12,877 bases of DNA from Promethearchaeia archaeon (GCA_046497275.1 JAWOFX010000049.1:1-12877), one strand, 5' to 3'; counted from the first letter of the stretch, positions 1 to 4,422 are shown. The notes: a model not told the origin generated them from the sequence alone. Program-made: numbers and translations.

Positions 1-1020
1 CTTTTAGAAGAACTCCTCTCTAGAGCAAATGAACCTAAAGTAGAAGATTTACTTTTAGAATATGCTCAAAATATCTATTCCAATGATATCGAAGGGAAGC
101 GTACCATTATTCAGGCATTTAATAATTTTGGTGAAAATAACGATTTAGCTCATAAAGAGCAAATAACAGATATTTTCAAAACATATCTCCAAGCCTTATG
201 GCAGAAAAGAAAAGATTCAAACAAAAATAAATTACCAACTGATCAACAGGAATTAGAACAAGAAATTATCAAGATTGGGGCACTTTTAGAGCTTGATCTT
301 GAAGCAGAGACGCTAAAATTCTTGGAACACTTAAACACACCTTTCGCTGCTCTTGATCAAGTCGCAGAGCATTATAAAGAAAATAACACGTTTCAGTCTC
401 TTTTAATGGAAAAATTGGGAAATACAAATAACCAGCGCTTTATTAAGGACATTTTAAAAGCAATTTCTCTAATCAAGGATCAGATCCCTAATTGTCAAGA
501 ACTAGTCATTAAAAAAATAGAGAAGTATGAATTTGCAGATACAGGCTTAATTATGAATTTAATGGAATCTGAACTTTTAAATGAGGATATTCTTGTGGAT
601 ATGCTCAAACAAGGGGAAGAATGGCAACTTGAATTCGTACGTGAGTTTTTGAATTTAACCCCTGAGAAATTAGATGAATGGAGTGCTTTGCATGACGAGA
701 TCAACTCAATTTTAACTTTATTTCCCGATAATGTTTCTGCTAAAGATTCTGATTCTGAATTTTATCAAAAAAAGGAATTTGCATTACAAGTTATAATTGA
801 TCTAAAACATCAGGAATTAGTCCAACATTGCTTAACTAATTTTTCAAAGTTGCAAGATGATAAATTGCGAAAAATGGCTTTATTTGCGATTATTACCTTT
901 GGAGATGATGATCTTTTATTAGATCTCCGGAAATTGATGGAAAAAGACGAAACAACTCAGGAATATGTGAAAAAGTTTTGGAAACAACTTGAACACCGTG
1001 ATTGGAAATTTTATTATTAG
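1..1020 (+). CDS. 5'-truncated alpha-helical solenoid (HEAT/ARM-like) protein, >339 aa, C-terminus ...HRDWKFYY
   Basis: Frame 1 is open from base 1 (LLEELLSRANEPKVEDLLLEY...) into the listed 322..1020 ORF, so the gene starts upstream of the window. It is L/E/K-rich and amphipathic, and the C-terminal segment LRKMALFAIITFGDDDLLLDLRKLMEKD resembles a HEAT repeat. The CDS is well supported; the fold is inferred. Confidence 0.75.
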   Translation, partial: LLEELLSRANEPKVEDLLLEYAQNIYSNDIEGKRTIIQAFNNFGENNDLAHKEQITDIFKTYLQALWQKRKDSNKNKLPTDQQELEQEIIKIGALLELDLEAETLKFLEHLNTPFAALDQVAEHYKENNTFQSLLMEKLGNTNNQRFIKDILKAISLIKDQIPNCQELVIKKIEKYEFADTGLIMNLMESELLNEDILVDMLKQGEEWQLEFVREFLNLTPEKLDEWSALHDEINSILTLFPDNVSAKDSDSEFYQKKEFALQVIIDLKHQELVQHCLTNFSKLQDDKLRKMALFAIITFGDDDLLLDLRKLMEKDETTQEYVKKFWKQLEHRDWKFYY

Positions 1021-1060
1021 AATAATTCCTTCGAAGAAGAATTCCTTATAAGATGGTAAG

Positions 1061-1191
1061 ATATTTCAAGGGAGTTCTTAGGCCCTCTTTGGAGGCTCTC
1101 CCTTATATCTGTGGCTTAAAGAAGAGCATATTAAGACCACAAATCCCTGTTAAAAGTATGTCTTTTGGTATTCCTCACTCCCTTGAAATAT
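1061..1191 (-). ncRNA. Candidate structured non-coding RNA (alternative: MITE-like element)
   Basis: A perfect 15-bp inverted repeat (ATATTTCAAGGGAGT 1061-1075 / ACTCCCTTGAAATAT 1177-1191) encloses three hairpins. One stem has a G-U pair on the minus strand that is a C-A mismatch on the plus strand. A TATA-like TTAAATAT lies on the minus strand at 1220-1213. Confidence 0.5.
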
Positions 1192-1202
1192 ATAATATAA
1201 TT

Positions 1203-1259
1203 GTCGGTAAAAATATTTAACAATTATGCACTTAACAAATTTAACAATTTTCGTCGGTA
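1203..1259 (-). promoter_or_regulatory. Putative promoter with repeated boxes upstream of the structured element
   Basis: On the plus strand, GTCGGTA occurs at 1203-1209 and 1253-1259 and flanks three TTAACAA copies (1217-1223, 1232-1238, 1241-1247). The minus-strand TATA-like TTAAATAT spans 1220-1213. Confidence 0.4.
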
Positions 1260-1330
1260 CCTAAAGACTCTCTAATATGATTATCAACAAAAATATCCTA
1301 ATTAAGCGGACTAATACGATTTTTCTTTCA

Positions 1331-1350
1331 CTCTTGAGTGGATTCAAGAG
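1331..1350. other. Short hairpin downstream of the zinc-ribbon gene (possible 3' end or terminator structure)
   Basis: CTCTTGA-gtggat-TCAAGAG, a 7-bp stem 30 bp past the stop at 1381. Confidence 0.3.
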
Positions 1351-3752: not shown

Positions 3753-4007
3753 ATGCCTTCGAAATTAATCTCAGTAAGGGAAGAAATATATAGAAAACTG
3801 AAAAAACTGAAAAATCCGGATGAGAGTTTTTCAGATTTATTTGAGAGAATTATAAAAACACAAGAAAAACAGCCTTTAAAACATTTTGGAATTGGTAAGC
3901 ATCTACCAGAAGAATTTCAAGATGAATTTGAAGCGGTAATTTTAGAAGCTAAGAAGGAATTCGCAGAGAATACAAGGCGCAGATTCAATGAACTTTGGGG
4001 AGAATAG
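3753..4007 (+). CDS. vapB: VapB-type antitoxin (archaeal DUF217/VAPB_antitox-like)
   Basis: N-terminus MPSKLISVREEIYRKLKKLKNPDESFSDLFERII matches the family pattern (K.IsV.eevY..L..lK..gESFSdvi.Rl). Acidic C-terminus. Lies directly upstream of a PIN gene. Confidence 0.9.
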   Translation: MPSKLISVREEIYRKLKKLKNPDESFSDLFERIIKTQEKQPLKHFGIGKHLPEEFQDEFEAVILEAKKEFAENTRRRFNELWGE

Positions 4008-4008
4008 A

Positions 4009-4422
4009 ATGATACTAGTTGACACGACTGTAATTATTGATATATGGCGCGGAAGAACCAACGTAAGGAAGTGCTTAGAAAAATACACTGAAGAATCTTT
4101 CGCAATATCTTCAATCACAATTGAAGAGATTTATGATGGGCTCGGATATACAAAAAAAGAAAAAGGAGAAGAACTCTATAAAAAAATTAGGAATCAATAT
4201 GCAAAAATTTTGCATAATTTTCACATCATCCCCTTATCTACAGAAATTTTAAAAAAAACAGGATTGCTTCGGGGAGAACTTAGAAGAAAGGGCGAGATAC
4301 TTGATCTTGCTGATATCATCATAATGGTCACAGCGCAAGAAATTCACGCATCTAAAATCATCACGAGAAATCCGAAGCATTTTGAGAATTCTTCAATTCC
4401 CATTGAATCCTATAATATATAG
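4009..4422 (+). CDS. vapC: VapC PIN-domain ribonuclease toxin, 137 aa
   Basis: MILVDTTVIID...SSITIEEIYDG...DLADIII...IITRNPKHF carries the PIN acidic residues. The start is moved to ATG 4009, 1 nt after the vapB stop and preceded by GGGGAG at 3997-4002. Confidence 0.93.
   Translation: MILVDTTVIIDIWRGRTNVRKCLEKYTEESFAISSITIEEIYDGLGYTKKEKGEELYKKIRNQYAKILHNFHIIPLSTEILKKTGLLRGELRRKGEILDLADIIIMVTAQEIHASKIITRNPKHFENSSIPIESYNI

Follow-up and report, generated by a model that had tools for sequence, protein, structure and literature searches.

The window, the whole 12,877-nt stretch of Promethearchaeia archaeon DNA analyzed here, contains a 360-bp gap between two convergent genes, and inside this gap lies a predicted structured RNA element of 131 nt (1061-1191, minus strand, read from 1191 to 1061). 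The plus-strand neighbor is a 486-aa gene without a Pfam match that ends at 1020, and the minus-strand neighbor is a 45-aa zinc-ribbon ORF (1381-1518) with a TPR gene behind it. The 486-aa gene (1-1020 (+) in the window, also present in L057-L061) encodes a protein ending in WKFYY and follows genes for an aldehyde:ferredoxin oxidoreductase, a TetR-type regulator, and a ferredoxin-domain protein, a synteny that is conserved, while its more divergent homologs in congeners have other neighbors. The stand-alone 45-aa ORF is 95% identical between the window and L047, a 10.9-kb metagenome contig that is collinear with the window at approximately 84% DNA identity across the wider region including the neighboring gene; the region 5' of the ORF (to ~1620) is 97% identical and the 486-aa gene approximately 84%. 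An ortholog of the 45-aa ORF occurs in L060 (6846-6980, 62% aa identity). The possibility that this ORF is a truncated larger gene was considered, and the remnant sought downstream of it was absent. Just after the ORF is a hairpin, CTCTTGA-ATCCAC-TCAAGAG (~1315-1334, minus strand), which is conserved in L047 with a U.G change and is probably the 3' structure of the 45-aa ORF. Elsewhere in the window (3753-4422, plus strand), an archaeal VapB-type antitoxin gene (PF02697) overlaps a PIN-domain toxin gene, forming an ordinary VapBC pair.

On the minus strand the element has a predicted minimum free energy of −41.3 kcal/mol, compared with −27.5 ± 3.8 kcal/mol in dinucleotide shuffles (z −3.6), and 1 of 200 shuffles folded as stably. 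The original prediction had described a 15-bp closing stem enclosing three hairpins, and all of these are present in the window, the stem being perfectly paired. The closing stem, P1, pairs nt 1-15 (1177-1191) with nt 117-131 (1061-1075), an assignment based on the predicted fold and on a comparison of pairs among homologs. The hairpins are AAAAG/CUUUU (hairpin 1), a central hairpin at nt 48-85 (1107-1144) with 13 bp, one bulged U, and one U.G pair, and CCUC-CAAA-GAGG (hairpin 3); as an exact arrangement this three-hairpin interior is not conserved across the seven homologs described below. The element also contains 2 invariant stretches. The first is ACCAAAAGAC at nt 23-32 (1160-1169), the same in all seven sequences and mostly single-stranded in predicted folds, and the second is the purine motif GGGAGAG at nt 90-96 (1096-1102), whose GGAGAG core is invariant in all seven sequences of alignment A6. 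The plus strand of the window element folds almost equally well (−38.9 kcal/mol, z −3.5), and for this reason both the strand and the choice between an RNA and a DNA palindrome had to be decided by comparison with relatives.

Six further copies of the element, five of them distinct from one another, were recovered with covariance models R1 and R2, all of them single and all downstream of an orthologous 486-aa gene. The seven syntenic single copies are those of the window, G003 (a congener of the window organism), L047 (to which L054 is identical), L057, L058, L059, and L060. The last four were reached through orthologs of the 486-aa protein that are 58-64% identical, and model R1 matched them with E values of 1e-11 to 1e-18. 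Over 135 genomes of the family, model R1 gave weak matches alone (E 0.015-0.7), which were treated as noise, and model R2 found no additional copies over 41 relatives. A 29-nt motif pattern matched in 2 of 400 Asgard genomes, namely the window genome (G000) and G003. A 19-nt pattern of the 5' motif (up to 2 mismatches) matched in 31 of 154 genomes of the order and was set aside, none of these matches having the 3' partner or ACCAAAAGAC. The element is absent beside the more distant homologs of the 486-aa gene (38-46% identity), and in congeners G004-G006 the homologs of this gene are more divergent and have different downstream neighbors, offering no usable empty-site comparison. In these searches, occurrence of the element was restricted to Lokiarchaeia-type Asgard archaea and, among them, to a narrow group comprising one genus-level clade.

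Within this clade, the element and the block immediately upstream of it are far better kept than their flanks. Between the window and L047, the RNA (1061-1191) is 91% identical and the 56 nt upstream (1192-1247) are 93% identical, as against 73% for the spacer further upstream (1248-1380) and 63% for the spacer downstream (1021-1060). Between the window and G003, identity is 95% over the RNA and 58% over the downstream spacer. This pattern of conservation indicates that the RNA and its promoter are under purifying selection in the window's lineage.

The alternative raised in the original prediction was a non-autonomous MITE, or in our wording a MITE or relic, with the 15-bp stem serving as the terminal inverted repeat. 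The perfect 15-bp repeats (1061-1075 and 1177-1191) bounding 131 bp have this appearance, and 14 nt of the stem are shared with a MITE-like element with 30-bp inverted repeats that is present in two copies (L051 and L056) in an unrelated metagenome, but this likeness ends with that short stretch. A BLAST search of the element's own 3.85-Mb, 98.9%-complete genome returned one copy, its terminal 15-mer (up to 2 mismatches) occurs 19 times versus 28 for the reversed control, and the paired-repeat pattern was found once in ~185,000 species genomes (in G003; the window genome's own records were perhaps left out of this set) and in none of the viral contigs. All seven cases occupy the same locus, the flanks carry no direct repeat in the window, L047, L057-L060, or G003, as the original prediction had noted for the window, a promoter is conserved upstream, and the changes among homologs preserve RNA structure. 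We consider a mobile-element origin very improbable, the reading failing because the element is single-copy and lacks a target-site duplication. The repeat in L051 (2491-2654) and L056 (4016-4165), from metagenome JACLAC01, belongs to an unrelated organism with 38-40% GC; its two copies, with 30-bp terminal inverted repeats, differ by an internal deletion, and it shares TATTTCAAGGGAGT (14 nt) with the element by chance.

The conserved upstream block has the organization of a promoter. A TATA-like box, TTAAATAT (1213-1220, minus strand), starts 29 nt upstream of the first base of the RNA, and this distance between TATA box and start is the standard geometry of archaeal promoters. When the 100 nt upstream were aligned for the six loci for which upstream DNA exists, an A/T-rich TATA-like box was found in the same columns (−30 to −24) in all six, and the start was T|A or T|G (T|R) in all six in surrounding DNA that has otherwise diverged. 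Further upstream, at −56 to −40, the motif TGTTAAAnTTGTTAAGT (1230-1246, minus strand) is invariant in the six loci; it consists of two TGTTAA repeats 10 bp, or one helical turn, apart and is probably a transcription-factor site. Since the box position and the upstream motif are shared by six loci, the earlier claim that the RNA has its own promoter now rests on comparison and not on a local match alone. Genome-wide, the upstream motif is not enriched (18 matches versus 20 for the control). A second, near-perfect copy (TGTTAAAACTGTTAAGT) followed by a TTAAATAT box is located on contig 43 of the window genome (3031-3047, plus strand, equivalent to L101:1501-1517), approximately 160 nt before a gene for a 376-aa NurA-domain (NurA-like) protein, which may be under the same controlling factor. 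The leader of the NurA-domain gene is without strong RNA structure (z −1.75).

Evidence for pairing was sought in the MAFFT alignment A6, which holds 7 sequences (6 distinct), all from one narrow clade. Counted over P1, P2, and one internal helix, 94% of the cells in this alignment are paired, compared with 32-61% when the partners are slid by 1-3 columns, and the observed covariation score was reached by none of 500 shuffles. In P1, pair 1 is A-U, G-U, or G-C among the seven sequences, including G003, where the first base has changed from A to G and turned an A-U pair into G-U, and pair 14, otherwise G-C, is A-U in L057, so that these two pairs covary. Of the 15 pairs, 12 are without variation and are therefore uninformative on pairing; with pairs other than 1 and 14 essentially constant, P1 is conserved as a sequence and not merely as a helix. 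In L047, GUUU/AAAC takes the place of the distal stem CUUAA/UUAAG of the central hairpin, a compensated exchange, and one C-G pair has become U.G; in G003, the loop of the long central hairpin has four substitutions relative to the window and a tetraloop has one insertion. The distant homologs have other hairpins at the central position, two of them in L058 and L059. Hairpin 1 can form in all seven sequences, without covariation, and hairpin 3 is confined to window-type sequences. The conserved CUUU tract has three alternative partners (AAAAG, which gives hairpin 1, AGGG, and the GGGAG tract), each paired in 84-86% of cells, covariation being slight or absent, and none of the three is decisive. 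Taken together, the homologs support the closing stem and a central hairpin, by covariation that is real but thin, with 7 sequences, 6 of them distinct.

The same comparison bears on the strand. The predicted folds of the distant homologs are more stable by 7-21 kcal/mol on the minus strand than on the plus strand (minus/plus −50.5/−43.5, −48.7/−33.9, −56.2/−35.2, and −45.9/−32.2 kcal/mol), and two A-to-G differences between L058 and L059 preserve their pairs as G.U on the minus strand only, which fixes the element's strand as minus. More generally, the compensatory and G.U-type changes are compatible with the minus strand only, in line with the strand first proposed. A palindrome acting at the level of DNA, as a protein-binding site or a cruciform, would account for the near invariance of both P1 arms beyond what pairing needs. 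Such a palindrome is scarcely credible here, with its arms ~100 bp apart, strand-specific G.U pairs, compensated internal hairpins, a kink-turn motif, a well-placed promoter, and the presence of the element in RNA libraries all speaking against it.

The kink-turn motif lies directly inside P1. According to PMC5061560, a kink-turn consists of a Watson-Crick C helix, a three-nucleotide bulge, G.A and A.G pairs 3' of the bulge, and then the NC helix. In the element, the candidate non-bulged strand is G16 A17 (positions 2n and 1n) followed by G18 G19 of the C helix (1173-1176, minus strand), within a UGAGGA sequence invariant in all seven homologs. The bulged strand is C110 C111 of the C helix, U112 A113 A114 as the bulge, and G115 A116 (1b and 2b) (1076-1082, minus strand), from which the strand continues into P1, such that CC-UAA-GA-ACU stands opposite AGU-GA-GG in the window. 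The assignment is therefore a C helix of G18G19/C110C111, a bulge of U112-A114, sheared pairs G115.A17 and A116.G16, and P1 as the NC helix. The 5' strand AGU-GA-GGA is common to all seven sequences, and the 3' strand is CC-U(A/U)A-GA-A(C/U)U in five of the seven; L058 and L059 have GUUC-UA-GA-U instead, with a 2-nt bulge, which is a caveat on the kink-turn assignment. At the sequence level, the definition from PMC5061560 is matched exactly in 5/7 homologs and with a 2-nt bulge in the other 2/7.

Enforcing the kink-turn geometry carries a predicted nearest-neighbor cost of 5.7 kcal/mol in L059 and of 1-3 kcal/mol in each of the other six sequences. At 3b.3n, two sequences have U.U and the others a Watson-Crick A-U pair, and by the folding rules of Lilley, kink-turns with a Watson-Crick 3b.3n pair are expected to need protein to fold. 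The genome of the window organism encodes two L7Ae-family proteins, with an L7Ae homolog on contig 43 (14995-15243). Kink-turn leaders unable to fold without L7Ae are reported in PMC6298567. The element carries a probable kink-turn next to the closing stem, a protein-binding site that may be bound by L7Ae. The original prediction had missed this motif; its overall reading of a non-coding RNA is still supported.

The element is contained in RNA-library contigs of two studies. A 528-nt metatranscriptome contig (study P3) corresponds to 1020-1547, covering both the 45-aa ORF and the element. Another, of 151 nt (study P4), corresponds to 1017-1167, and a contig from a third study covers 1263-1526 only, taking in the 45-aa ORF but ending before the element; each has 100% identity to the window. 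The organism is present in salt-lake and sediment metatranscriptomes. The contigs containing the element are unstranded and give neither a start site nor an expression level, and DNA carry-over is possible. Their ends hint at a 3' end near 1017-1020, at the far side of a poorly conserved trailer (1017-1060, minus strand) that runs from the RNA to the stop codon of the convergent gene. In the window, this trailer contains no run of 4 or more T and no oligo-T terminator after the RNA, and in L047 and G003 terminator-like T-runs (4-7 T) occur within 7-8 nt after P1. The contig spanning 1020-1547 joins the 45-aa ORF to the element and therefore also fits read-through from that ORF, and with unstranded contigs that give no start site, read-through and independent initiation are both possible, perhaps both occurring.

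This contig, which is continuous from 1547 to 1020, is one argument for an untranslated-region reading, namely that the element is the 3'-UTR or terminator of the 45-aa zinc-ribbon gene on the minus strand or, on the plus strand, that of the convergent 486-aa gene. Other contigs connect the element region with the end of the 486-aa gene, and the plus strand folds nearly as well in the window. Against this reading, a conserved promoter-like block stands between the 45-aa ORF and the element, preceded by a poorly conserved spacer, and the ORF has a hairpin of its own (~1315-1334), one RNA contig stopping at 1263, before the element. The 45-aa ORF is moreover outside the examined locus in L057 and L059 and ~1 kb away in L060. 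The G.U pairs and folding energies favor the minus strand, and in L057-L060 a whole ORF lies between the element and the 486-aa gene. We regard either form of 3'-UTR as quite unlikely.

This intervening ORF, distinct from the 45-aa ORF on the other side of the element, encodes a 45-47-aa zinc-ribbon protein (L057:5489-5632, L058:5497-5634, L059:5493-5633, and L060:5492-5635, all minus strand) with the pattern MSPxCxxCG...FCPxCG. It is always directly downstream of the RNA, and its start codon follows the RNA by 36-47 nt. Its Pfam matches are weak and are to RPB9-, TFIIB-, and A2L-type ribbons, and searches of protein sets of 5.8 billion and 1.8 billion sequences returned its own cluster only, which restricts the protein family to this clade. 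The ORF is absent from the window genome, entirely lost in the window and G003, and represented in L047 by a decayed remnant (13 nt are identical, and 19 aa match at 42%).

This arrangement invites the interpretation of the element as a protein- or ligand-binding, cis-regulatory 5' leader of the zinc-ribbon ORF, left in the window as an orphaned, functionless remnant. The short distance to the ORF in L057-L060 is what a leader would show, as is the lack of a T-run between RNA and ORF in 3 of these 4 loci, and L058 has a Shine-Dalgarno-like GAGGA before the ORF. Archaeal leaders in which L7Ae and a kink-turn regulate translation are known (PMC5539422, PMC6298567). An orphan leader, however, is expected to decay, whereas in the window, G003, and L047, where the ORF is gone apart from the remnant in L047, the RNA and promoter exceed the spacers in conservation, and compensatory changes continue in lineages without the ORF. 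The terminator-like T-runs directly after the RNA in L047 and G003 also fit a leader poorly. We therefore consider the leader interpretation unlikely, if deserving of some weight. That the RNA and promoter were kept after the loss of the ORF means that the RNA works without it, which argues for a functional RNA product and not only a leader.

The explanation we favor, and hold to be probable, is that the element is the gene for a structured small non-coding RNA with its own promoter that has survived the loss of the adjacent ORF; the RNA would act in trans through an L7Ae-bound kink-turn. The independently transcribed minus-strand RNA originally proposed is supported by synteny, conservation, covariation, the promoter, and the lack of an Rfam match. 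Under the proposed mechanism, a promoter composed of the TGTTAA direct repeat, a TATA-like box centered near −27, and a start at T|A/G would produce a stable RNA of ~130 nt, with a trailer of ~40 nt possible in the window organism. P1 would run into a kink-turn in which tandem G.A/A.G pairs and a 3-nt bulge of the 3' strand are followed by a short GG/CC helix, and the core beyond it would comprise the invariant purine/A-rich ACCAAAAGAC and GGAGAG together with the variable central hairpin. An L7Ae-family protein may bind the kink-turn and bend P1 against the core, and the resulting small RNP could then display the invariant loops in trans to a partner, either a protein or an RNA. In the ancestral state, the 45-47-aa zinc-ribbon gene would have followed the RNA, probably in the same transcript, making the mini-protein a candidate partner; in the window's lineage this gene has decayed while purifying selection has retained the RNA and promoter.

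A bolder version of this mechanism, which we regard as a long shot, is that the RNA and the ancestral TFS/RPB9/TFIIB-like zinc-ribbon mini-protein together make up a dedicated Asgard RNP that regulates archaeal RNA polymerase in the manner of 6S RNA or 7SK. If this were true, the invariant helix, the kink-turn, and the large A-rich internal loop would constitute the docking surface, and the combination of an element at approximately −50 with a TATA box at approximately −27 would foreshadow the layout of eukaryotic type 3 Pol III small-RNA promoters.

Among known prokaryotes, Asgard archaea are the most closely related to eukaryotes, and to our knowledge their RNA biology is almost unexplored. 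In the literature searched, we found no description of an Asgard-specific non-coding RNA outside the universal families. The element described here is a testable case, a single-copy RNA gene with a conserved promoter, a 15-bp helix that hardly varies, two invariant loops, and a probable L7Ae site, which selection has retained despite the decay of the adjacent mini-protein gene. It provides a defined substrate for the biochemistry of Asgard L7Ae and kink-turns and a candidate new RNP, and the conserved upstream element of its promoter could be used to identify a transcription factor. Being confined to one genus-level clade limits its value.

Comparison with known RNA families began from Rfam 15, against which the whole window gave no match at gathering thresholds; at E ≤ 10, the matches to 900-1400 are noise from unrelated snoRNA models, in agreement with the earlier judgment that this RNA is undescribed. 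The one C/D-type match overlapping the element is on the plus strand, scores 15.7 bits against a gathering score of 70 bits, and is noise like the others nearby. ARAGORN found neither a tRNA nor a tmRNA. Y RNAs of Ro RNPs resemble the element in being RNAs of ~100-130 nt whose ends form a long, sequence-conserved stem around a variable interior, but the stem feature of the element is a kink-turn and not a bulged-C Ro site, and there is no match to a Y-RNA model in Rfam. As no TROVE/Ro60 gene (PF05731) was found in the 98.9%-complete window genome, a Y-RNA-like reading is unsupported. Archaeal MITEs share with the element its size and perfect terminal inverted repeats, but the element differs in being single-copy and syntenic, in lacking a target-site duplication, and in accumulating changes that preserve promoter and structure.

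Riboswitches built with kink-turns or k-junctions (SAM-I, TPP, T-box stem I) resemble the element in having a closing helix, a kink-turn at or next to a multi-helix junction, and a length of ~100-140 nt, and in the distant relatives (L057-L060) the element likewise lies just upstream of an ORF. Unlike these, it has no Rfam match, shows no sign of a ligand or an expression platform, and is selected without a downstream gene in three lineages. A riboswitch or cis-leader position was rejected on the last count, a downstream ORF being present only in L057-L060 and not in the window, G003, or L047. H/ACA sRNA was also rejected, as the kink-turn directly adjoins the terminal stem without a pocket beneath it and ACA follows the stem in 2/7 sequences only. 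Box C/D sRNAs resemble the element in that their terminal stem adjoins tandem G.A pairs, and the GUGAGGA of the element agrees with box C (RUGAUGA) at 6 of 7 positions. The orientation is the opposite one in C/D sRNAs, however, whose terminal stem serves as the C helix and whose bulge belongs to the box C strand; in addition, the 3' motif of the element is (A/U)AGA instead of CUGA, and the element has no C'/D' boxes and is approximately twice as long. With GUGAGGA and (A/U)AGA in place of boxes C and D, and the terminal stem forming the NC helix, assignment to the box C/D class was rejected.

There is a general likeness to the L7Ae-bound kink-turn RNAs of archaea (C/D and H/ACA sRNAs, RNase P RNA, and mRNA leaders with kink-turns; PMC5539422, PMC6298567, PMC5061560), with which the element shares, at the level of sequence, a simple kink-turn, along with a host that has L7Ae-family genes. 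Unlike them, the element has a 15-bp terminal helix that serves as the NC helix and bears the kink-turn on its inner end, with the bulge on the 3' strand, and it carries neither guide-RNA boxes nor an ACA box and matches no family. That no described family matches, combined with the probable kink-turn, points to a new small RNA and a new structured sRNA family, probably an L7Ae-type RNP, and this new family is assembled from known parts: a terminal helix, a kink-turn, and an archaeal promoter.
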